Of a stretch of DNA of 64,000 nucleotides, positions 14,158 to 35,102 are shown in pieces. The translations under genes were made by a program, and so were the position numbers. Below the pieces are notes generated by a model. That model did not search any database and was not told where the DNA came from. It saw only the letters and a program-made list of their open reading frames with translations. Each line of letters begins with the position of its first letter. Position 1 is the stretch's first letter. The stretch lies in assembly GCA_002269645.1 (NCBI GenBank), contig NIVC01000219.1:208532-272531 (forward strand), given 5' to 3'. Origin of the DNA: Macrostomum lignano. Taxonomy: Eukaryota.

Positions 14158-15126
14158 ATGTCGTCATCGTTGCTGTTGCTGCTTCTACTGTTTCTGCTGC
14201 ATTGCCAGTCAGCTGGCACCAGCAACTGTCCGCCGCTGGGGCGCACGTGCACGACTTTCAACTCGATGCCGTTGTGTCCGAAAACAGATGACGATACAAC
14301 CGGGACTCGCGTCAAGTATGAGTCTAAACCGAGCTGCGTTTACCGGTGTGCCATCGATCAGGCCTGCTCAGCCGTGCACATCAGTGCCGAGCAGTCCAAA
14401 TGCTTGCTGGCTACATCAGCTCAATGGCAGGACAACTGGTTGAACTTCAGCTCGAGGTGCAGCTCTCTGTTCAAGCGGCTAGCGGCTCCGCAGAAGAGCG
14501 GTCTTGCCGAAGGCTTAGTCGCGTGGTACAACTTTCGCTATTCGCTGCTAAATCTGGCTGACGAGAACGTGCTGACGTCAAGCTTAACAACCGCGTCACA
14601 AAGGAAGGCTTCTGGTGCAATTCTGAACGGTCGCAGTGGAAGCTGCATCCGCGTGTCGGTGCCAAACGGCCTGCAGAATATTGCGGGCCCGGCTGGTGAG
14701 TTCAGCTACTACGTGAAGGCGGAGCGAGACTACAAGGCCAGCACTTACTATATGCGCGCTTCTTCTAGCTCAGCCGAATCGAGCGTTGAAGCCTTCCTAA
14801 TGGAGTCGAACCGTAGAATTGTCTTTGGAAATGCCAAGGTCAGTGCTTACGGACAGGAAACTGGTCAAATCACTGATTCTGGAACCGCTACCGTGTCCAT
14901 AGGTGTCACTTACGGAGTAGCTTTCAGTGCCTACTACAATGGAAGGCGACTTGTCGTTGGTAGCACTGGGACAAGGCTTCAATCTGTCCGTGCTGGAACC
15001 GACGTCCTTCTCGGATGCAAGCACAATGACGCATCGAAGACTCTGAGTGGAAGAATTCTGTGCTTTGGCCTCTGGAATAGAAGCTTGTCGATGAGTGATT
15101 TTGAAAATCTCGGCGGTGAATGCTGA
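14158..15126 (+). CDS. Intronless secreted protein: signal peptide, PAN/apple-like Cys domain, LamG/concanavalin-A-like domain (322 aa)
   Basis: ATG 14158, hydrophobic leader (SSSLLLLLLLFLLHCQS), SCVYRCAIDQACSAVH...SKCLL cysteine spacing, then GLVAWYNF...ILNG...IGVTY...AYYNG...VLLG...LSGRILCFGLWNRSLS typical of ConA-like lectin/LamG folds. Domain names are by motif recall, not by search. Confidence 0.7.
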   Translation: MSSSLLLLLLLFLLHCQSAGTSNCPPLGRTCTTFNSMPLCPKTDDDTTGTRVKYESKPSCVYRCAIDQACSAVHISAEQSKCLLATSAQWQDNWLNFSSRCSSLFKRLAAPQKSGLAEGLVAWYNFRYSLLNLADENVLTSSLTTASQRKASGAILNGRSGSCIRVSVPNGLQNIAGPAGEFSYYVKAERDYKASTYYMRASSSSAESSVEAFLMESNRRIVFGNAKVSAYGQETGQITDSGTATVSIGVTYGVAFSAYYNGRRLVVGSTGTRLQSVRAGTDVLLGCKHNDASKTLSGRILCFGLWNRSLSMSDFENLGGEC

Positions 15127-19424: not shown

Positions 19425-21095
19425 GTATTTTCCTCTTGCGAGCCTCTAAGTACTGTTAGAATATGCATGCAGCGACGATTAGAATACGTTTCAGTACGAT
19501 GTCCTTGTGTTATCTAGCTTCGCAGCGTCACGGCTAAAATTATGTCTAAAGTGATGTGATGGTTGATGGTTCCTAAAAAGAAGGAACGGTTAACGACGCC
19601 ATTTTCAGTTTTAAAGAAACAACAAAACAGAATGCCACAAATTAGCTAATAAAATGCTTAAAAATTAATTTTGCTATATAACATTATTCAAGGCATTTAA
19701 ATATTTTTACTGAAAAATTGGTTAATTATATGATATTTAATGCCGGAATTTTCGAATCAGCGGCTTGGCCGGCCGTATGTATTTAAACTGGCAAGTGGCT
19801 TGACTGGATCAGGGTCGCAATGTTATGATCTCAGCCCTCGCAGTCCTCGCAGCCCTCGCATATCACCAAAACCACAGTATGTTCGTGCCTTGTGCAATAT
19901 GCTACGGTTGGGCCTAGACTCAGCTCTGGAGAAAATCTTTTACACTTTTATGTACTATTTTAAATATGAAATCTGCTCGTAAAAATAGGCCATGGCTGTG
20001 TAAAGATAGCAATATTAAAGATTGATAGTTAATTACTAGGCCTAATTAACATCATCAAATAATTATTTGCTTTTTGAATATAAATTATGACAATCTTAAT
20101 TCTTAAGCCTACACAATTCTTGGAGTACCTGTTGTATTGACTTCTAACGGCCTACTTTGATATGTAGGCCTATACTAAAGCACTAAGCTAAGAGCCTGCC
20201 TAGTAGTAGTACAACCTAGGCCTAGTTGACTCTATCTAGAGACCCCTTGTATATGCCAAAATTCTCAATGACAAAGGCCACCTCTTGACAATGGTTCCTC
20301 ACAGGGTTTAAAATTTTGTGTCACTAATATTCCATAGCAAGGGGAAAGCCAAATTTGAAACAAACTTAAAACAAAGTCAAGCTCTCAATATAAATTAAAA
20401 ATTCATAATATTAATAATATATTTAGGCCTTAACTTTGGGTGTGGGTTATTTTGTTTAACTGTTAGTTTGTTTGCTCTCTGCTAGAGGTCCACGCTAGGG
20501 TAGGTAGGCAGGCCTAGGTTAGGCAATTTATCTGCTAGCTTGTATTGTTTCCAATGAAAAAATACCAAGTAATAAGGCAATAAAACATATCTTAGTATAC
20601 AGAGCAGTATTTGCTACAAAAAGCATCTATTTTTTTATTTAGTGCTACTTTTATTAAGATAAATATTGATTTATCTTAGGTCTTGAGTGTGCATTTTGAT
20701 TTTTAGTAGACATTTTGCATGAAGTAAGCGGTAGGCCTTGGCCTTATGAAGTTCATATAGTTTCTTAATGCATTTCTTTTAGCATTATATAAGTAAATAA
20801 ACTTATAATTAATATATTATAAAATCATATTTAAAAATAAAAGCTAAATTATATAGTATCATCTTTTTAAATTGTTATATAGCATGCCATAGTCCAAATC
20901 ATGCTAGGTGCACACGTGAACAAAAATAGTATATTTAGAAATGCATGCCAAATTTTTTTTGAGTGTATTATTATACTCTTAAATATATTCTGGTGTTGTG
21001 ACATTGAATAACCTTTTTTTTGAGTTGCATAGAAGACCTTTTTTGGCTAATAATTTGGTTGATTTTTTGCTTTTTTGTTTATACTATTTACAGTA

Positions 21096-21864
21096 TGTGA
21101 CAGGCCTTTTTGGCTCTGTCTTTCTAAACTTCTAACTATTAGTGTTTATTAAATATCCTACGAGCTGCCACCAAAGTTGTTACAGGCCTTTCACCTCTTA
21201 CTTTATCAATTTTAATCCCACCGATTTGCCAACTACAGTTATCCTGATTATACTTGCTTTTACTCCCTAACTATTTCTTAGAATTTCATTTAAATATTTC
21301 TGGGTAGCGTTCTTAGTAGCGTTTCTGGTAGCATTCTTAGTAGCGTTTCTGGTAGCTTATGGCTTGCTTTCTGGTAGCGTTCTAGTAGCTTATGGCCTGA
21401 GCGGTCTAGTACTGGTATATGTATTAGTGTATAGTCCTAATCGGGCGTTCACCGAGACTAGAGGGTCACGGCGCCTCTCTTGGTATATCTCCAAGAATTA
21501 GTCCCAATTCCCTTCTCTTAGCAAATTTCTTAGAATCGTTTCACAGGTTTTGCAAATAAATAAGTCGCTATTTAGCTCAAAGACTTTGAAATGGTTTAGA
21601 TTGAACTGCTTATTCTGTTCGCAATTATTTGCTCACGAGTAAAAGACAGTTAGAGTATATTTGTCGCGAAACCGCTCCTATATATAGTGATTTTCCCCAC
21701 ATACGATTAAAACAAAAAAATAATTCTCCAATTTATTTCGCGCATTAAAACAAACTATTATTTGGCGTTTGCGTAGATTCAGTTTCTAAGAAAGATTCGA
21801 ATATACAGTTATTACATTGAAAGAACATTCTAGTATACTATGATAAAGGCATAGCACTAGTACA
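21096..21864 (-). repeat. 3' LTR
   Basis: Near-identical to 25386-26154; on the - strand a TATATA precedes an AATAAA. Confidence 0.93.
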
Positions 21865-21877
21865 ACTTTCCTCCTCT
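21865..21877 (-). promoter_or_regulatory. Polypurine tract AGAGGAGGAAAGT
   Basis: Immediately 5' of the 3' LTR on the - strand. Confidence 0.85.
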
Positions 21878-22150
21878 ATATATCAAATTTTGAACGAAAT
21901 ACTATATTATATGTATACAGTGAAAAATTGATATCGTAGGAAAATGTAGGTGAAAAGGTGCAAAGCAAGGTGCAGAAAACACAATTCAGTGCTAAAACAA
22001 TTGGTGCATAAAATGGTTGTGATAGAACTATTATGTAGGTAAACCATTAAAGTGAGAACTATTATGGAAGCAAAACGAACTATTATAAAAGTATTATAAA
22101 AGGCAAAATTGTTATTAAAGGCAACGCAAAAGTTAGTTCACCTCAATAGT

Positions 22151-23024
22151 TCAGATAAACATGCAGGGCTCCGGGAGGTCGCGATAGTAGGGCCAGCCGA
22201 CTTGAGCGAAAAACCATCGGTACTCTTCGTCGAGGACCGTCAGCGCTGGCGGCGGATTGGCTCTTATAGCTCGCTGGAGGCGATAGGCGACGTCCTGGAG
22301 AACAGCGACAGCTTCCTGGTAACTGAATTGATCCCTTAGAAACTTCAGGTGTGTCCAAATTTGCGAGCATTGGGGTAGCGCTGTCGGCTGTCGGATCGGT
22401 GGTACGCTACTTTCAGTGCGTATTGCTCAATGTGGAAGCGTAGCTTTTCCACCTCTGCTCCGCGAGTCTCCACAAGTTCTCGGACGATGCGATGAAAATC
22501 TCTCTGCGAATTCTATTGCTGCTGGCTCGGCTGTAGTGCTGATGGCTGGCTAGACTGCTGCGCTGATTGCAGGCTCGGCTGCAACGCTGACTGCTGCGCT
22601 GATTGCAGGCTCGGCTGCGACGCTGGCTGCTGAGCTGGCGGTGTCGCAGCTGTCGATTTCTTCTGCCGTGGTGCCGGGGTCTTTCTCGATGATGGGGCAG
22701 CTGGCGGTGACACCAACTGCTGCGTTCGGCTTGATGTCGACGATCCTGGCGTGGCCTTGACAACATAGGAGCGCACGGGCGCAGCTGCCTGTGCTGCCAC
22801 CAGGGCGGCGCGCTTCTGCTCGGGCCTTCGACCCTCATTTGGCGGCAAGGCGATGAAGCTGGCGATGATGTTCTTGGCCGTTTGCTGGATACACCAGGCG
22901 CCTTTGGACGTGTTGCACATCGAAGCGGTGCCTCATTTTCGTCGGTGTTGGGCGCTGGCTGGGGCTCCATATCGTCTGACAGATTGCCAATTAACTCGTC
23001 CAAGATATCAATAGAGTTGTTCAT
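22151..23024 (-). pseudogene. Accessory gene inside the LTR element, disrupted (original product about 290 aa: acidic N-terminus, Q/S/P/A-rich linker, helical C-terminal domain)
   Basis: ATG 23024 (MNNSIDILDELIGNLSDD...). Three frames can be stitched across one stop and at least two frameshifts to ...NSQRDFHRIVRELVETRGAEVEKLRFHIEQYALKVAYHRS...LKFLRDQFSYQEAVAVLQDVAYRLQRAIRANPPPALTVLDEEYRWFFAQVGWPYYRDLPEPCMFI*. Confidence 0.55.
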
Positions 23025-23108
23025 TTTGATTTCTCTGCGAATGGCTCTTAGAATAGAAAGGAAGCTAGCAGTGAGCTATGGGATCTGTGGGGCCTGCGGG
23101 GTGCTCGT

Positions 23109-23174
23109 ATTTATAGGCTGGCGGGTTGAAAAACTGGACCTCTTCGAAGCACTCCCCTCGCGCGTGGGGCGGGG
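23109..23174 (-). promoter_or_regulatory. Internal Pol II promoter: GC box and TATA box
   Basis: GGGGCGGGG at 23166-23174 and TATAAAT at 23115-23109 (- strand), ~85 nt upstream of ATG 23024. Confidence 0.6.
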
Positions 23175-23424
23175 CATGCCAGATTTGACAGATTTGACAA
23201 CTAAATTTTTATGGATTTTCTATTTCTTTTTATAACTTTTTTATTTTTTGATAGATTTTCTTGAGTAAAGTATCAAATTAAAGATCGCATTTTGTAGATT
23301 AATATGGTATTTACAGATTCGCTCTATGTACAGCATGTCAAATTTTATAAGCAGATAAGTAATTCTAATACGGAATTTTAACTATTTAACACTGTTTCTT
23401 ATGGGAAATTGCTTACGTCATGAT

Positions 23425-24440
23425 TTAAGGTGCTAAATATTTCGCGTAGCGCCTTCGGGGCACAAATCCTGTCGCGCCTTCTCTTTCTCTCCTTCGCTGA
23501 GTCATCCTAAAGTTATACCTATTCTCTGGCTGAACTCGTTCCTCCTCTAACTCTAATGCTCCTTCTTCTTCTTCTGATGGCTCATCTGAGTCAGTCGCTC
23601 TCTCTGTATTCTCACTGTTCAATTCCTCATTTCCTTCGTTTTCACTCTGCGAATTCGGATCTGCGAATACTCTCCATTGAATTCTGTTTTCTTCGTCTGA
23701 GCTTTCCTCCTCTAAAATTTGAACTTCTGGAATTCTAACTTCTTTTTGTCTATGGCAAATTCTTTTCTTCGGCTTCGGCTGTTCTTTCTTCTTAGTTGGC
23801 ACTATTGCTGGTTCTAAATTATCATTATTAATTTCTTCTGGTAAATCAATTTCGGATTTCGGCACTGGAGTCAGATTATTACTGTTTTTCTTCGAACAAT
23901 TTTGCAAATTCTCACAGCTTCTCTTCGAAATCTCATCTTCATTTCATCTCATCTCAACTCAACAACTTCTCGACTCAATATCTCAACTCGACCCTGACCT
24001 CTCGAAAGCTTCTCTGCTGAACTCATGCCAGCTACAGCTCTACTGTCACGGGTCCTACAACTCTTAACAAATTCTCAAATCTCGAATCTCCTTCCGCTAT
24101 CTCAGTTTGGCCTCGTCAGTAGAATCATAGAAATTCTGTATTAATCTGCTCTTTAGGCCTTACTGCCCTTCCTTTCCTGCATGGCCTGACTCTCTGAACC
24201 TTTTTTGGCTCTTCTGAAAGCGTCATCGGCCTCTTCTTTCTGCCTTTGGCCAATCCGCAATTGGTCAGCATGCGTAGCTGTCCGCGCGTCATGCCAATCT
24301 CTGCAATCCAATCTTTTCGACAATTCTCTTCGCACAATTCTGCACAGTTCTCTCAGCATCAACTTCTCGTCAACTTCTCTGAGTAAAATAATCTTCCTTC
24401 AATGTTTTCAGTCCGAAATTGCAGTTCCCTGGCTTTCCTA
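23425..24440 (-). pseudogene. Decayed pol 3' remnant (probable integrase core trace plus acidic C-terminal tail)
   Basis: DAERTVQNCAKRIVEK weakly resembles the integrase helix GLAERxVQTxK; ORF 23425-23907 is acidic and ends ENRYNFRMTQRRRE like Gypsy Pol tails. Many stops. Confidence 0.35.
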
Positions 24441-24706
24441 AATAAGTTTCTTAGTAAAACGGCCCTTTTAAGGTCAAACGGCCCTTTTAAGGGTCACCTT
24501 CCTAAAATTTAATTATTTTATTTCTTTTAGACAGCTTATTGCCTTGCAACATGCCAACAAAATACCTCTTAATCAAATGTTTTTGGGTTTTTGTGAATTT
24601 TTTTATTCGTTTTTATATTTATGCATATATATTTGAAACATATTTACAGATTTGCTTTACAGACACTTTTAATTTGCTGATTCGCTTGAGTTCGCTCACT
24701 TTCTGA

Positions 24707-25285
24707 TTATGGCGGCTTCTGCTGGGCGTACCGATTGAAGTTGATTCGGCACTGGTGTCCTGCTTGAGGCCTAATGGGTCCTGGCTGGTTGCAGAAGAAG
24801 CAGTGACCAGGTGTCGGCTCTGGCCTGATTCCACTGAATCTGTTCAGGCGGCGCGGTCTTAGCACTGACTGCTGCTGCTGCCCTGTCTTTGGTTCTAGGC
24901 TAATGTTCGTTAGCACGAAGGTCAAGGTCATTAGACACTCTACTAATGCATCAATTCCCTCTTTTCGGTTCTGCTGCTTCGGCTCAAATTCTTCGATTAT
25001 TCGTCGCCTAATTTCCTGATACTGACTCTGCTCTTTTCTGTGACTGATTCGGCGTTTCAGTCCCTCTGGGATGTTTAGATTAGCAAAGAGAGCTTCCTTC
25101 TGTTTCTCGCCTGTAATCCCTTGGATTCTGCACTGCTGCTCAAACGTGTTCATCCACTGCCTAATGTTCTGACCAGGTGTGAACTTTTCTACTTGCACTT
25201 CAGCCTCCTTCGATCCTAACTTGAGATGTTTCCTCAGTTCCTCTGCCAGCATGGCGATGGCATCATTAGCCTGATTCTGATTCAT
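24707..25285 (-). CDS. Gag-like protein with degenerate zinc knuckle (192 aa)
   Basis: First ORF after the primer site; VEKFTPGQNIRQWMNTFEQQC (capsid-like) and CFFCNQPGPIRPQAGHQC. Confidence 0.75.
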   Translation of the reverse strand: MNQNQANDAIAMLAEELRKHLKLGSKEAEVQVEKFTPGQNIRQWMNTFEQQCRIQGITGEKQKEALFANLNIPEGLKRRISHRKEQSQYQEIRRRIIEEFEPKQQNRKEGIDALVECLMTLTFVLTNISLEPKTGQQQQSVLRPRRLNRFSGIRPEPTPGHCFFCNQPGPIRPQAGHQCRINFNRYAQQKPP

Positions 25286-25364
25286 CTTCTCTCTATGAAA
25301 AACTTTTCAAATTATTCTTCGGAATTCTTCTGAATCTAGTTTTGAGAGTTCGCGCCGTTTCTCT

Positions 25365-25383
25365 AATCCCACCGCTGCCACCA
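25365..25383 (-). promoter_or_regulatory. Primer-binding site complementary to tRNA-Leu(AAG/TAG type) 3' end
   Basis: TGGTGGCAGCGGTGGGATT, 2 nt after the 5' LTR; complement of ...AATCCCACCGCTGCCACCA. Confidence 0.88.
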
Positions 25384-25385
25384 GC

Positions 25386-26154
25386 TGTGACAGGCCTTTT
25401 TGGCTCTGTCTTTCTAAACTTCTAACTATTAGTGTTTATTAAATATCCTACGAGCTGCCACCAAAGTTGTTACAGGCCTTTCACCTCTTACTTTATCAAT
25501 TTTAATCCCACCGATTTGCCAACTACAGTTATCCTGATTATACTTGCTTTTACTCCCTAACTATTTCTTAGAATTTCATTTAAATATTTCTGGGTAGCGT
25601 TCTTAGTAGCGTTTCTGGTAGCGTTCTTAGTAGCGTTTCTGGTAGCTTATGGCTTGCTTTCTGGTAGCGTTCTAGTAGCTTATGGCCTGAGCGGTCTAGT
25701 ACTGGTATATGTATTAGTGTATAGTCCTAATCGGGCGTTCACCGAGACTAGAGGGTCACGGCGCCTCTCTTGGTATATCTCCAAGAATTAGTCCCAATTC
25801 CCTTCTCTTAGCAAATTTCTTAGAATCGTTTCACAGGTTTTGCAAATAAATAAGTCGCTATTTAGCTCAAAGACTTTGAAATGGTTTAGATTGAACTGCT
25901 TATTCTGTTCGCAATTATTTGCTCACGAGTAAAAGACAGTTAGAGTATATTTGTCGCGAAACCGCTCCTATATATAGTGATTTTCCCCACATACGATTAA
26001 AACAAAAAAATAATTCTCCAATTTATTTCGCGCATTAAAACAAACTATTATTTGGCGTTCGCGTAGATTCAGTTTCTAAGAAAGATTCAAATATACAGTT
26101 ATTACATTGAAAGAACATTCTAGTATACTATGATAAAGGCATAGCACTAGTACA
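25386..26154 (-). repeat. 5' LTR
   Basis: Near-identical to 21096-21864. Confidence 0.93.
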
Positions 26155-27700
26155 AGTAAAAAGTGATACATACAAAGATCTGTTCAAATGCCTTAATATA
26201 AGATTAAAAAACTGGGAAGCTTGAAATTTATGCTTAAAAATAAACTTTTTAAATTGTTTTACCACTTAACAATAACTTTTCTATGTGATTCTATAAGGTG
26301 CATAGCAAATTTTTGGGCATATATTACATGATCCAATGTGTAAATAGCATGTAATTGAACTATAACAATTTTTCCCTTTGCTTTAAATATTGGCAACCAA
26401 GCACAAATAAATTAACTAATCATATAATATGTAATATATAATATAGTGCTATATTGGTGCTATAAAGTTGATTATTAAATGGCAATAGCCAAGAACAAAT
26501 TGAAAAAAAAAATGTGCAAAGTGAGGCTACTCAGGCAGTTAAACATTCAACAAAGTTAAATAATAGGCCTCCCTATATTGATTTTTTCTTAGAAGATCCA
26601 AACTGATTCTGGTTTTAGAATTGGTTAATATGAAAAAAGTCTGAAAGTCTTTACACTGTCTGTGTGCTATTTTTTATGCGAATCTGCTTGCTTTTAAAAA
26701 TACACCTAGGCTATATAAAAATAATAATTAATAAAGATTGATTAGTAATTAATAATAGGTATAATTAATTAGGCCTAACTGCTAATATCAACAAATAATT
26801 TTTTGCTTTATGAATATAAATTCTAACAAGCCTATGCTTAAGCCAATACAATTCAATAAAAAACACAATTTAGCATATCTTAATTTTTATAACAATTTTG
26901 TTTGCTTAGGATCTAGCTTAAGGATATTATATTAAAGGTTTTTCAAATTTCCTAGTCAGTCAAAATTAAAAAATCAAATATATACAAAATATTTGAGATT
27001 CATATAGTAAAGTATAACAATTCCCTTCTATAGTATTTTTCCTGTAACAAATTATATATCAAAAGGGTATGGGATTTCTAGGCTATGCTTTTTATTGCTA
27101 AAATATCAAACAATCTTTTAAATTAATTTTTTGTGTATTAAATATTTCATATTTTTAAATTTTTAGCTAAAATTACAGTACCAGAGATAAAAAATCTATC
27201 AGATGCAGAATTATTATAAATTTTTGTTTGAGTATAAACTTATTTTTTTAATGTACCTTGTCTAACACATAAGTATCTTGTCATTGGCAACCAATCATAC
27301 ATGCGCAACTTCTGGCCAACCTGGCCGATCTGGCCACCGTAAATTGTGGTGGACCAGGAGTAAGTCGCAAAGATGCCCAGCCTAAAGAATAGACGTATTA
27401 CTAATTAGATGACGAGGCATTTAGCCCTTATAAGACAATCATAGCTACTCCTGCCGTTTACCCAAAAGGGTTAGGTTTCTTTTACAGGTTAGTCGCATTA
27501 TTGGTCAAAAATTAAGTCGCATGGCCAGTGTAAATCAGGGGGGTTGCGCATGTATGCAACCAATTGTTTTCTAATTTTTTATATCTAACATGTAGTTTTA
27601 TATCTGCAAGTTTGATTACATTAATTGTCTGATTGTTTTCAGCAGTAGCATTCATTATTAATCTTTGCTATACAAACAGAGCAATACTTATTGAAATTGA

Positions 27701-30700: not shown

Positions 30701-30821
30701 TAGAATGACTGAATAATTAATATTTGCAATGCTTCGCCATTTACCCTGAAATTAAATAATCTAAATCGTTAACGGTAACGCTCCAGCGGTTTTTAAAACT
30801 TCAACTAATAAATAAACAGCA

Positions 30822-32233
30822 ATGGCTAGCAAAGACAGTGCGGTGGCTCACAGCCTCACAAATCCCGAGATCAGTCGCTACAGTCGGCAGTTAATTATGC
30901 CCGAAATTGGCGTCGCCGGTCAAATGGCTTTGAAGTCCAGCCGGGTGCTAATTATCGGCGCGGGGGGTCTGGGCTGCCCTGCCGCTATCTACCTGGCCGC
31001 TGCTGGTGTTGGTGAGTGCTCGCTGACCATTCTGTGTGTGGCTAAAATTAGGCCAGCATAAACTGGCTTCATTAATAAATACTAGTCAGTATAATGATAA
31101 CTCACATTAGGGCCCAATTATAAAATCACTCTCGGGCGATTTCAAACGGACAATCACTCTCTTGGATCACGAATGGAAAATCACTCTCTCGGATCCCTAA
31201 TGGAAAATCACTCTCTTGGATCCCTAATGGAAAATCACTCTCTTGGAAAATCAGTCTCTTGGATCCCTAATGGAAAATCACTCTCTTGGAAAACCAGTCT
31301 CTTGGATCCCTAATGGAAAATCACTCTCTTGGAAAATCAGTCTCTTGGATCCCTAATGGAAAATCACTCTCTTGGAAAACCAGTCTCTTGGATCCCTAAT
31401 GGAAAATCACTCTCTTGGAAAATCAGTCTCTTGGATCCCTAATGGAAAATCACTCTCTTGGATCCCTAATGGAAAATCACTCTCTTGGATCCCTAATGGA
31501 AAATCACTCTCTTGGATCCCTAATGGAAAATCACTCTCTTGGATCCCTAATGGAAAATCACTCTCTTGGATCCCTAATGGAAAATCACTCTCTTGGATCC
31601 CTAATGGAAAATCACTCTCTTGGATCCCTAATGGAAAATCACTCTCTTGGATCCCTAATGGAAAATCACTCTCTTGGATCCCTAATGGAAAATCACTCTT
31701 AGATCCCAAAATTCCCAATGGAAAATCACTCTTCCTTTAATCCTCCGCAGGCCACATAGGCATAGTGGATCACGACAATGTTGAGCTGAGCAATCTGCAT
31801 CGCCAGATTCTGCACACAGAATCTGCTATTGGCACACCTAAAGCCGTCTCTGCTGCTGAGCAGTGCCGCAGGTAATTTTTTGCTTTTACAGGTAGGCAAT
31901 GTTAGTAGACTTGGTAAACTTTATTTAATTAATGCTGTTGGTTTTATTTATTTTTCTCTCAGGCTAAATTCAAGCATTACTTTGGAGCCGATCACAGAGA
32001 AATTTACTAACAAAGTGGCTATAAACATTGTTAGTCGGTGAGTTCAATTATCAAATTAAAAACTGTTTTTGATAGTGCTAAGCAAGTACGAGTAAATAAA
32101 ATACTGTAATAAGTGTTGTATATAATGTACTACCACTACCACTACTACTACTACTACTACTAGTACTACTACTACTACTACTAATACTACTACTAATGCT
32201 ACTACTACTACTACTACTGTACTACTACTACTG

Positions 32234-32267
<34 letters not shown>

Positions 32268-35102
32268 TACTAGTGCTACTACTACTGCTACCACTACTAC
32301 TACTACTAATGCTACTACTACTACTACTAGTACTACTACTACTGCTACCACTACTACTACTACTAATGCTACTACTACTACTACTAGTAGTACTACTACT
32401 AATGCTACTACTACTACTATTAATGCTACTCCTACTACTACTAATGCCACTACTACTACTACTACTAATGCTACTACTACTACTACTAGTACTACTACTA
32501 ATGCTACTACTACTACTACTAGTACTACTACTAATGCTACTACTACTACTACTAGTACTACTACTAATGCTACTACTACTACTACTACTAATGCTACTAC
32601 TACTACTAGCCCTTACCCGATATCCCTTCTCAACCCGCAGCTTCGACCTGGTGCTGGACTGCACAGACAACGTGGCCACCCGCTATCTAATCAATGACGC
32701 CTGCGTCCTAGCCGGCAAACCGCTGGTATCCGGCGCTGCTCTCGGCTTTGAAGGGCAACTCTGCGTGTACAATCACCGCGGCGGGCCGTGCTACCGGTGT
32801 CTGCACCCGGCCCCGCCTCCGCCCGAGACCGTGGTGTCCTGCGCCGAGGGTGGCGTACTGGGTTTAGTGCCAGGCATTATTGGTAGCATGCAGGTATAAT
32901 AATTCATGTCCTGTCATGTCCTTCTCTGTCACCTCGCATTTCCTCCGTTAATATCCCTCGCTTCCCCCCTCTATCCTTCCCCATCCCCCCTCGCTTCCCC
33001 CCTCTATCCTTCCCATCCCCCTCGCTTCCCCACTCTATCCTTCCCCATCTCCCCTCGGCTCCTCTCTCTATCCTTCATTCCTTCCCCATCTCCCCCTCGC
33101 TTCCCCTCTCTATCCTTCCCCATCTCCTCTCGCTTCCTCTCTTATCCTTCCCCATCTCCCCCCTCGCTTCCCCTCTCTATCCTTCCCCATCTCCCCTCGC
33201 TTCCCCTCTCTATCCTTCCCCATCTCCTCTCGCTTCCTCTCTTATCCTTCCCCATCTCCCCCCTCGCTTCCCCTCTCTATCCTTCCCCATCTCCTCTCGC
33301 TTCCTCTCCTATCCTTCCCCATCTCCTCTCGCTTCCTCTCCTATCCTTCCCCATCTCCCCCCTCGCTTCCCCTCTCTATCCTTCCCCATCTCCCCTCGCT
33401 TCCCCTCTCTTTCCTTCCCCATCTCCTCTCTATCCTTCATTCCTTCCCCATCTCCCCCTCGCTTCCCCTCTCTATTCTTCCCCATCTCCCCTCGCTTCCC
33501 CACTCTATCCTTCACCAAATTCTCCTCATTTTCTCATTATTCAGGCTCTGGAAGCAGTCAAAGTGATCCTGCAGCCGGTTCAGGCGAAAGCCAATCTGTC
33601 AGCTACTGGCACTGACGAGCAGCAGCCGCCGCAGGCGCCCAAACAACAGCTGAGACTATTCAACGCCTTAGAGAGCTCCCTACGCTGCGTAGCTATCAGG
33701 AAACGCTCGCCAGGCTGCGAAGTCTGCGGTCGGGAGCCTCGCATTGTCGACGTGCGCTCCGTTGATTATGAAGCTTTCTGCGGCCTGCCAGCCTGCGACT
33801 TGGTGACGCCAAGGACGCCGCTGCCCGGTCAGACTCGAATCAGCGCCACCGAGTTTGCTAAGGTTTGTTTTGCAGCTTCACTTGTGTTTAGGCTTGTATT
33901 GCCGTTAGCTAGCCAGGTTCTGGAATTTTAGGTCTCTAGACACTAACATCTCGTCTAAGGACTAGCTTTAGACCTTTGAGAGCCCTATGTTAAGCTTCAG
34001 GAGCACATCCAATCTGAAGAGTCTGTTGTACAGCCAGAACCTGAAGGGCCTGTTTTACACCCAGAACCCGAAGGGCCTAGTGTACACCCAGAACCTAGGG
34101 TGTCTGTTGTACACCCAGAACGTAGGGTGTCTGTTGTACACCCAGAACCTAGGGTGTCTGTTGTACACCCAGAACCTGAAGGCCAATGAAGTGTCTGTTG
34201 TACACCCAGAACCTGAAGGCCAATGAAGTGTCTGTTGTACACCCAGAACCTGAAGGCCAATGAAGAGTCTGTTGTACACCATTGTACACCATGCAACCAT
34301 TGGTTTTAAACCCGCGCCACCATCAGGTGTACAATGCCGCCGGATCGTTGCCGACAGAACAGCGATCGCCGCGTCTGCTTCTCGACGTTCGTCCGGAATG
34401 CGAGTTTGCCATCTGCCGGCTTCGTGGCAGCCTGAACGTGCCGCTGTCTCGATTGGCCCAGCCTGTTGGCAAAAGTCTGCTGGCTGAGGCTCTGCATCCT
34501 CTGTTAAACAGTTCTTTGGCTGCCGGAGATGCCAGCCTCTGCGATAAGGACAAACTTTTGCCAGGTGAGCTGTTTCCTTTAGTTGCAACTGGAGTTTTTG
34601 CTCCAGGAATTCGATTTACTGAAAGTTTCGTTTTTAAATCTAATTAAAGATCACCCTCAGATCTCATCGAAAATCGCCCTAACGAATCCTGTAAATAATC
34701 GCCCTCCAATGCTTATGAAAATTATTCTCAAATCCCAATGCAATACCGGCCTTCAATACTGCTAAACATCGGCCTCCAATACTACTGAAAATTGGCCTTC
34801 AATCCCAGTGTAAAATAGGCCTTCAATACTACTGAAAATAGGTCTTCAATATGACTGAAAATCGCCCTGTAGTTAGATTAAAAACGACTTTTTCACTCTA
34901 TTTTTCAACTTAACTTTTTATGCAACAACCATCGCCCTCGCCGTTCCCAGTGTACGTAATCTGTCGCCGTGGCAACGACTCTCAAGTGGCGGTTCGCATC
35001 CTGCAAGAGCAGCTGGCTGACCGGCCCTGCCGTCTAATAGACATTGCTGGCGGCCTCACCGCCTGGGCTGCTCAAGTTGATCGAGAATTCCCTATTTATT
35101 AA
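30822..35102 (+). CDS. MOCS3: Adenylyltransferase and sulfurtransferase MOCS3/UBA4
   Basis: Exons 30822-31011, 31751-31871, 31963-32037, 32641-32893, 33545-33862, 34327-34564, 34951-35102 splice in frame. Motifs [63 protein letters not shown], and rhodanese loop CRRGNDSQ with GGLTAW...FPIY. Confidence 0.95.
31135..31735 (+). repeat. 27-bp minisatellite (GGATCCCTAATGGAAAATCACTCTCTT), MOCS3 intron 1
   Basis: Direct reading. Confidence 0.95.
32128..32608 (+). repeat. (CTA)n-type trinucleotide repeat, MOCS3 intron 3
   Basis: Direct reading. Confidence 0.95.
32955..33512 (+). repeat. ~32-bp pyrimidine-rich minisatellite, MOCS3 intron 4
   Basis: CTTCCCCATCTCCCCTCGCTTCCCCTCTCTAT units. Confidence 0.9.
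34018..34275 (+). repeat. 27/37-bp minisatellite (CTGTTGTACACCCAGAACCT...), MOCS3 intron 5
   Basis: Direct reading. Confidence 0.88.

Follow-up and report, generated by a model that had tools for sequence, protein, structure and literature searches.

To our knowledge, the function is established for few of the accessory proteins that animal LTR retrotransposons encode. In foamy viruses, a second promoter downstream of pol works in the sense direction and independently of the LTR to drive the non-structural accessory genes tas and bet, and Tas, a nuclear trans-activator, then activates the LTR (PMC3185757, in part). Gypsy-type LTR elements of an invertebrate, Tor3b and Tor4b of Oikopleura, carry a third gene after a gap behind pol, with an internal promoter, and its product is a furin-cleaved transmembrane glycoprotein (PMC4402516, in part). 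At the env position of Cer1, an element of C. elegans, lies the gene of CERV, a lineage-restricted, nuclear, non-Env protein of 517 aa, which is made from a spliced mRNA joined to gag exons, combines helical domains with flexible linkers and a Cys-rich region (a possible C4 zinc finger), and is needed for export of the genomic RNA, with a candidate NLS and NES (PMC10309623, in part). Varied non-Env third ORFs, comprising GDSL esterases, DEDDy exonucleases and transmembrane (TM) proteins with known homologs, occur in LTR elements of bdelloid rotifers, small invertebrates as well (PMC5408684, in part), and extra ORFs are common in plant LTR elements (PMC7264820, in part).

The gene described here, ORF3, lies between pol and the 3' LTR on the sense strand (the env position) of one LTR element of Macrostomum lignano, in a stretch of 64,000 nucleotides (contig NIVC01000219.1, positions 208,532 to 272,531 of the forward strand) that is referred to as the window. 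Since the Oikopleura Tor elements and the foamy viruses already provide examples of this layout, a third gene behind an internal promoter, the locus is not an undescribed kind of system, for which the original prediction had named it the best candidate. ORF3 is a real, conserved, non-Env accessory gene that is integral to a young, pol-less LTR family, and its protein family is apparently undescribed, as literature searches gave no description of it. LTR elements of M. lignano were surveyed in 2025 on the basis of their reverse transcriptase (RT), and an extra ORF goes unmentioned in the portion of the survey text covered (PMC12801592); the motifs of the element are absent from the supplements of that survey, and the gene ids of the homologs given below are absent from the supplements of PMC12801592, PMC5816591 and PMC12896417.

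The host element runs on the minus strand from 26154 to 21096 (5.06 kb) and has two TG...CA LTRs, a target-site duplication (TSD), a primer-binding site (PBS) and a polypurine tract (PPT), as an LTR retrotransposon should. Its 3.5-kb interior comprises, in this order, a gag-like ORF, a decayed region of about 760 nt, an open, acidic stretch of 172 aa and the cassette with ORF3. Outside the cassette, the following features were located:

25386 to 26154, minus strand: 5' LTR, 769 nt, TG...CA, with a 4-nt TSD before it.
25365 to 25385, minus strand: PBS, directly behind the 5' LTR.
24707 to 25267, minus strand: short ORF of 186 aa, gag-like, that contains a Cys/His knuckle in degenerate form.
23944 to 24706, minus strand: decayed region at the pol site, without RT, RNase H or integrase core.
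23425 to 23943, minus strand: acidic open stretch (pol tail), 172 aa, ending in a basic RYNFR...RRY motif.
21866 to 21880, minus strand: PPT, before the 3' LTR.
21096 to 21864, minus strand: 3' LTR of 769 nt, with the other copy of the TSD behind it.

Because the 769-nt LTRs differ by 3 mismatches (0.4%) and the 4-nt TSD, PBS and PPT are in place, the insertion is young. The PBS is, as we take it, similar to the complement of the 3' end of tRNA-Leu. A tRNA-Leu PBS is known from Mag-like elements and is not diagnostic for the clade (PMC3286476, in part). The element is non-autonomous, its interior being without an RT, RNase H or integrase core: no long pol frame (PR-RT-RH-IN), as an autonomous Ty3/gypsy element would have, occurs in the 3.5-kb interior, and the pol region, read through its stops in three frames, gave no match to Pfam. 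Nor did any of the seven ORF pieces of the element match Pfam below an E-value of 0.1. The 186-aa ORF is a putative gag, a label that comes, like that of the pol tail, from position and motifs, and the RYNFR...RRY stretch we take to be a likely integrase tail. Searches of Pfam, homologs and PDB lent support to neither the gag nor the "pol remnant" label, and the gag-like ORF had no match in any of the three (best PDB E-value 0.14). Four public runs from four studies (X3, X11, X12 and X18) were compared with positions 21866 to 26400 of the window; three of them are guessed to be RNA, and none of the runs containing the sequence is catalogued as RNA. Their contigs bridge the region from gag to the pol tail (X3 record 27, X11 records 5-6) in runs guessed to be DNA and RNA alike; hence, the pol-less form is present in other DNA and is not peculiar to the window copy.

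Several further observations concern the LTRs and the gag-pol region. The LTR has a TATATA box at about 25976, between two motifs at 26033-26026 and 25961-25955 (minus strand) that we regard as E2F-like and that would be a possible link to dividing stem cells. A 12/24-nt tandem array lies inside each LTR (25587-25679 and 21297-21389). At the 3' end of the LTR (25521-25445, minus strand, and the same in the 3' LTR), there are two PBS-like motifs, one of them right after a near-copy of the terminal 12 nt of the LTR, and the LTR may have grown by absorbing older LTR-end/PBS junctions. Many loose contig ends fall in the LTR and point to related LTR families. At 24765-25049, contigs of X12 and X18 (records 15 and 22) are about 90% identical to the gag-like ORF, which indicates a second subfamily. 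In the decayed pol region (24475-24519), a sub-threshold Rfam match to the Histone3 stem-loop (27.8 bits, gathering threshold 34) lies over a short direct repeat and is likely due to chance.

The cassette stands out by a GC content of 0.45-0.64, against 0.19-0.32 on either side. On its minus strand, ORF3 extends over 874 nt or about 291 codons, with the ATG at 23024 and the final stop at 22151. The frame of the window copy is disrupted three times, near 22820 (frame), 22513 (stop) and 22370 (frame), and this copy is broken and likely dead. Its pieces are as follows:

22830 to 23024, minus strand: piece 1, with the ATG, an acidic amphipathic helix (LDELIGNL), an EAPLRxxTRP motif and an NLS-like KRPR.
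22513 to 22821, minus strand: piece 2a, a predicted disordered linker rich in Ala, Pro, Ser and Gln with 36-nt QPS repeats, terminating at the in-frame stop.
22378 to 22512, minus strand: piece 2b, helices 1 and 2 of the conserved C-terminal domain.
22151 to 22372, minus strand: piece 3, the last three helices and the GWPYY tail of the C-terminal domain, with the stop.

Homologs were searched with HMMER using the last 73 residues of ORF3 as query against 1.84 billion representatives, at an E-value of at most 0.001. Among the six hits, three true homologs span the whole query at 39-49% identity: P0001, a hypothetical protein of M. lignano with 349 aa, of which an identical record exists under two gene numbers on two contigs; P0002, another hypothetical protein of M. 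lignano (90 aa); and P0003, an unnamed Logan cluster with a longer member, P0007 (251 aa), that is recorded on four contigs. The other three hits (P0004, TPR/NB-ARC; P0005, SH3 glucosaminidase; P0006, a repeat protein) were dropped as multi-stretch matches in repeat proteins. Among the 8000 candidates scored in a profile search, P0001 and P0003 were the sole hits, word-index homolog searches gave no match for the 71-aa piece or for gag, and scans of viral and metagenome contigs found no relative. On P0001, piece 1 aligns with residues 114-154 (23 of 41 identical), piece 2 with 160-272 (42 of 111) and piece 3 with 277-349 (39 of 69), at BLASTP E-values of 4e-10, 0.08 and 2e-24, respectively; on P0007, the three pieces correspond to residues 1-49, 25-173 and 178-251, the first two of which overlap. 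As the three pieces are collinear with P0001 and P0007, both unbroken, the stitched frames match natural, unbroken proteins, in keeping with the original prediction of about 290 aa by stitching.

At all three breaks, the contigs of all four runs depart from the window at full depth, so that the breaks are specific to this copy or to its assembly, and from these contigs together with the homologs the ORF3 frame appears to be open in the family. The long contigs over the cassette show few differences (4 letters and 1 gap in one case, 0 and 1 in another). Outside the breaks, all three ORF3 substitutions among the differences listed (40 of 161) are synonymous, a small sample with a chance of about 0.04 for transitions; among the substitutions listed for the pol tail, which is drifting, 2 of 11 are synonymous, and 1 of 3 for the gag-like ORF. 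One X3 contig covers 21866-23862, i.e., pol tail, cassette and PPT, and the joint into the LTR is present in all four runs; the cassette is, thus, a fixed part of the element family.

These data also bear on the origin of the gene. ORF3 could be a host gene of a Macrostomum-specific family, captured with its own promoter and carried as cargo or to the benefit of the host cell. The sharp GC step, the complete promoter and the annotation of two homologs as stand-alone genes of M. lignano, in an annotation built from RNA-seq (PMC5730564, in part), would agree with this. However, no homolog was found beyond M. lignano and one unnamed cluster, P0001 occurs on two contigs and P0007 on four, as repeats would (although the assembly is redundant), and the synonymous-only differences speak against mere cargo. 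We consider such a capture distinctly improbable, and the idea of a captured host domain, raised in the original prediction, is disfavoured by true homologs among the 1.84 billion representatives that amount to two M. lignano proteins and one Logan cluster.

The protein itself begins with an acidic amphipathic helix of the pattern [IL]D[DEM][FL][IL]xxL in all three members that possess an N-terminus (frequency in shuffled sequences at most 0.0004, for a pattern derived from those same sequences). The EAPLRxxTRP motif is likewise present in 3/3 members. A basic motif follows as KRP or KRPR in all three and as K(K/R)x(K/R) in two of the three, and the KRPR of the window copy matches an NLS pattern. 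The N-terminal helix carries a 9aaTAD pattern in two of the three members; that of the window copy fits the class-3 NES pattern and not 9aaTAD, and the NES pattern is not found in P0001 and P0007. The middle is a variable, basic linker of Ala, Pro, Ser and Gln, and the chain closes with a C-terminal domain of about 118 aa ending in GWPYY. In AlphaFold2 models of the natural homologs, a short helix at the N-terminus is followed by a linker of low confidence and by a domain that is modelled with confidence. Modelled alone from a 5-row alignment, the C-terminal domain is predicted to form five helices (pLDDT 88.9, pTM 0.83); its net charge is +4, 0 and +4, with 1-2 Cys residues (3 in the whole homologs).

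Comparisons with known families gave no relative. The three true homologs matched nothing in Pfam below an E-value of 0.1, the best E-values in PHROGs and by sequence in PDB were 0.22 and 0.64, no usable feature match was obtained from the ESM Atlas (structure rows below threshold), and Foldseek gave 0 hits in PDB at an E-value of at most 0.001 (whole model only) and 0 in BFVD. The best VIA-align Z-scores (7.7, 8.2 and 7.4) all belong to unrelated helical bundles, and the best fold match of the C-terminal domain, a cullin repeat (Z 8.2, rmsd 3.4, 101 residues aligned), is within the range of generic bundles; as the matches are generic only, they establish neither a known nor a new fold for the domain. 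Unlike the bdelloid third ORFs with their known homologs, ORF3 matches no family, and it is no segment of Pol. The view of ORF3 as an unrecognised accessory protein has gained from its conservation and its place in the element family.

ORF3 is not an envelope protein. The highest 19-residue hydropathy in the three pieces and four homologs is 1.02, i.e., no TM or signal stretch was found, as the original prediction had it, and the furin site R-x-K/R-R is absent from all seven sequences. In this, it differs from the glycoprotein of Tor3b and Tor4b, and about half of the Macrostomum protein is disordered. With neither TM segment, signal peptide nor furin site, and with an NLS-like motif in its chain, ORF3 is also very unlikely to be a cytoplasmic, particle-associated helper in assembly, trafficking or non-Env cell-to-cell transfer, despite its env position and an N-terminal helix that, in our reading, resembles LD-type docking motifs. 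Auxiliary roles of this kind have been proposed for other ORF3s (PMC5408684, in part).

Upstream of ORF3, the cassette contains the elements of a probable promoter:

23180 to 23199, minus strand: 9-nt tandem repeat shortly before the GC box, a candidate for a regulatory site.
23166 to 23174, minus strand: GC box, CCCCGCCCC on the sense strand and GGGGCGGGG on the plus strand.
23109 to 23115, minus strand: TATA box TATAAAT, unaltered in X12 record 11, with a predicted start near 23090-23083.

GC box, TATAAAT and ATG are where they had been placed beforehand (23174-23166, 23115-23109 and 23024, minus strand), the GC box having been given in its plus-strand reading GGGGCGGGG. The GC box is unaltered in X11 record 3 and X12 record 11. 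The window has 49 TATAAA[AT] sites, counting both strands, and that of ORF3 is the single one preceded by a GC box at a distance of up to 100 nt. In two runs guessed to be RNA, contigs over the cassette and 3' UTR reach a mean depth of 43 and 30, compared with 22 and 11 in the sequence just before; in X3 the depth is flat and one contig reads through, so that the step is seen in two of the three RNA-guessed runs. X18 has no contig across 23098-23205. In the DNA run, depth falls with GC content (rho -0.55), and contigs of any run are unable to place a start. The step in RNA depth at the cassette is a weak hint that the promoter is used. Taking motifs and depth step together, ORF3 probably has a working internal promoter, and expression independent of the LTR, as originally suggested, may be expected from the unchanged promoter motifs and the weak depth step. 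In foamy viruses, the corresponding promoter is inside the env gene of a complete retrovirus, whereas the Macrostomum element has neither env nor a pol core.

Contig ends at 23045 (X12) and 23074 (X11) were considered as a splice acceptor and rejected; since the break recurs at that branch point in the DNA run, these ends are likely due to a variant of the genome. In X18, the end at 23097 is adjacent to one of the variable sites listed and is therefore not a mapped start. Between TATA and ATG, there is a pyrimidine tract with AG dinucleotides, so that splicing or trans-splicing into ORF3 is possible; in M. lignano, trans-splicing affects 38.8% of the genes (PMC5730564, in part). No splice joint entering the cassette was found among 15 of the 19 joints, in contigs that drop rare forms. 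Between the pol-tail stop and the GC box (23420-23180, minus strand), the sequence contains TGACGT directly behind that stop, an AATAAA at 23245-23240 and a doubled TGTCAAATC; the DNA run and one RNA-guessed run skip 90 nt at 23242-23333.

The layout of the gene also invites comparison with CERV, which shares with ORF3 the lineage restriction, the non-Env product at the env position, the helical domain with flexible linker and the nuclear location (predicted for ORF3). ORF3 could accordingly be a Rev- or CERV-like RNA factor that shuttles and exports or stabilises the full-length element RNA, for which the class-3 NES pattern on the helix of the window copy, the NLS pattern at KRPR and the basic linker would be suitable equipment. 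We hold this to be quite unlikely: CERV is made from a spliced mRNA, and none of the 15 of 19 joints covered enters the cassette; the NES pattern is not kept in P0001 and P0007; CERV is Cys-rich, whereas the ORF3 domain has 1-2 Cys; and a separate promoter would leave no balance of spliced and unspliced RNA to control. ORF3, which is 250-350 aa long, has a single helical domain and probably a promoter of its own, also differs in build from the larger protein of Cer1.

For the function of ORF3, we put forward, tentatively and with less than even confidence, a nuclear trans-activator similar to Tas whose gene is read from the TATA/GC-box promoter in the cassette. At times when the LTR is quiet, this promoter would show weak activity, and the KRP(R) motif would take the protein into the nucleus. 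There, the five-helix C-terminal domain would dock on the DNA or chromatin of the element, directly or via a host factor, and the N-terminal acidic amphipathic helix, set on a long and flexible linker, would bring in co-activators and increase transcription from the LTR. The result would be an early/late switch as in foamy-virus Tas, for whose role ORF3 is a candidate by analogy. An LTR-independent promoter suits a gene that is needed before the LTR is on, and ORF3 has the parts that an activator usually combines, namely an acidic helix, a basic motif resembling import signals, a linker predicted to be disordered and a compact domain. Several points weigh against this proposal: the C-terminal domain has no match to a known DNA-binding fold, and its net charge is low (+4, 0 and +4); the helix of the window copy fits the NES rather than the 9aaTAD pattern; and the internal promoter and the LTR have no 10-mer in common, the common 8- and 9-mers being AT-rich. 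The searches of Pfam, PDB and BFVD list no match of ORF3 to Tas or Bet. A canonical three-unit heat-shock element was found in neither promoter, and GAAnnTTC occurs once in the LTR and not in the internal promoter.

An LTR-independent promoter would equally suit a factor that is required while the LTR is silenced. ORF3 might counteract the repression of its own family by piRNAs or heterochromatin. Like VANC, it could bind the DNA of the element, or it could serve as an adaptor through which a host silencing protein is bound or degraded. The VANDALs, which encode VANC, belong to the class of Mutator-like DNA transposons. VANC is a fast-diverging, transposon-encoded accessory protein, as ORF3 would be, and the tandem repeats in the non-coding DNA of the VANDALs, often the targets of VANC, have a possible counterpart in the 12/24-nt array of the Macrostomum LTR at 25587-25679; VANDALs, however, are elements of a plant, Arabidopsis, in which VANC acts on DNA methylation, and homology to ORF3 was not found (PMC5735166, in part). 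In the genus Macrostomum, transposons are silenced by the Macpiwi1 piRNA pathway (PMC4604429, in part). Short conserved motifs within a disordered chain would suit an adaptor, and cullin repeats recur in the fold rows (Z 5.8-8.2), but those scores are generic, no similarity to known suppressors was found in the searches, and an activation domain would account for the acidic helix no less well. An anti-silencing role is, on balance, unlikely.

Returning to the Tas-like activator, a broader scenario is conceivable but doubtful: Macrostomum LTR elements would use a second promoter to express a transcriptional activator or anti-silencer that they themselves encode, a foamy-style early/late switch would have arisen independently in a gypsy-type element with a new five-helix domain, and pol-less satellites would keep the gene, drop the enzymes and possibly supply the protein to autonomous partners. 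ORF3 makes it testable whether simple animal retrotransposons run regulatory circuits like those of complex retroviruses, and Macrostomum, a flatworm, offers RNAi, transgenesis and a studied piRNA pathway for such work. Some "hypothetical" genes of Macrostomum would then be transposon accessory genes, and a helical domain without known family is added. Should ORF3 be cargo or a generic helper, it would still represent a new ORF3 family, of modest interest.

The surroundings of the element yielded some additional observations. The AT-rich flanks at 20013-20098 and 26729-26834 have short repeats of 81-85% identity in common, and in the DNA run the coverage of the upstream flank is deep; the element is, therefore, likely nested in another repeat. 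On the plus strand, a single-exon ORF of 322 aa at 14158-15126 has a signal-like start and a Cys-rich N-terminal part, and its exact sequence is absent from the protein collection. Also on the plus strand, exons with minisatellite-filled introns extend over 30816-34650 and look, in our judgement, like a MOCS3/Uba4 gene (ThiF and rhodanese).
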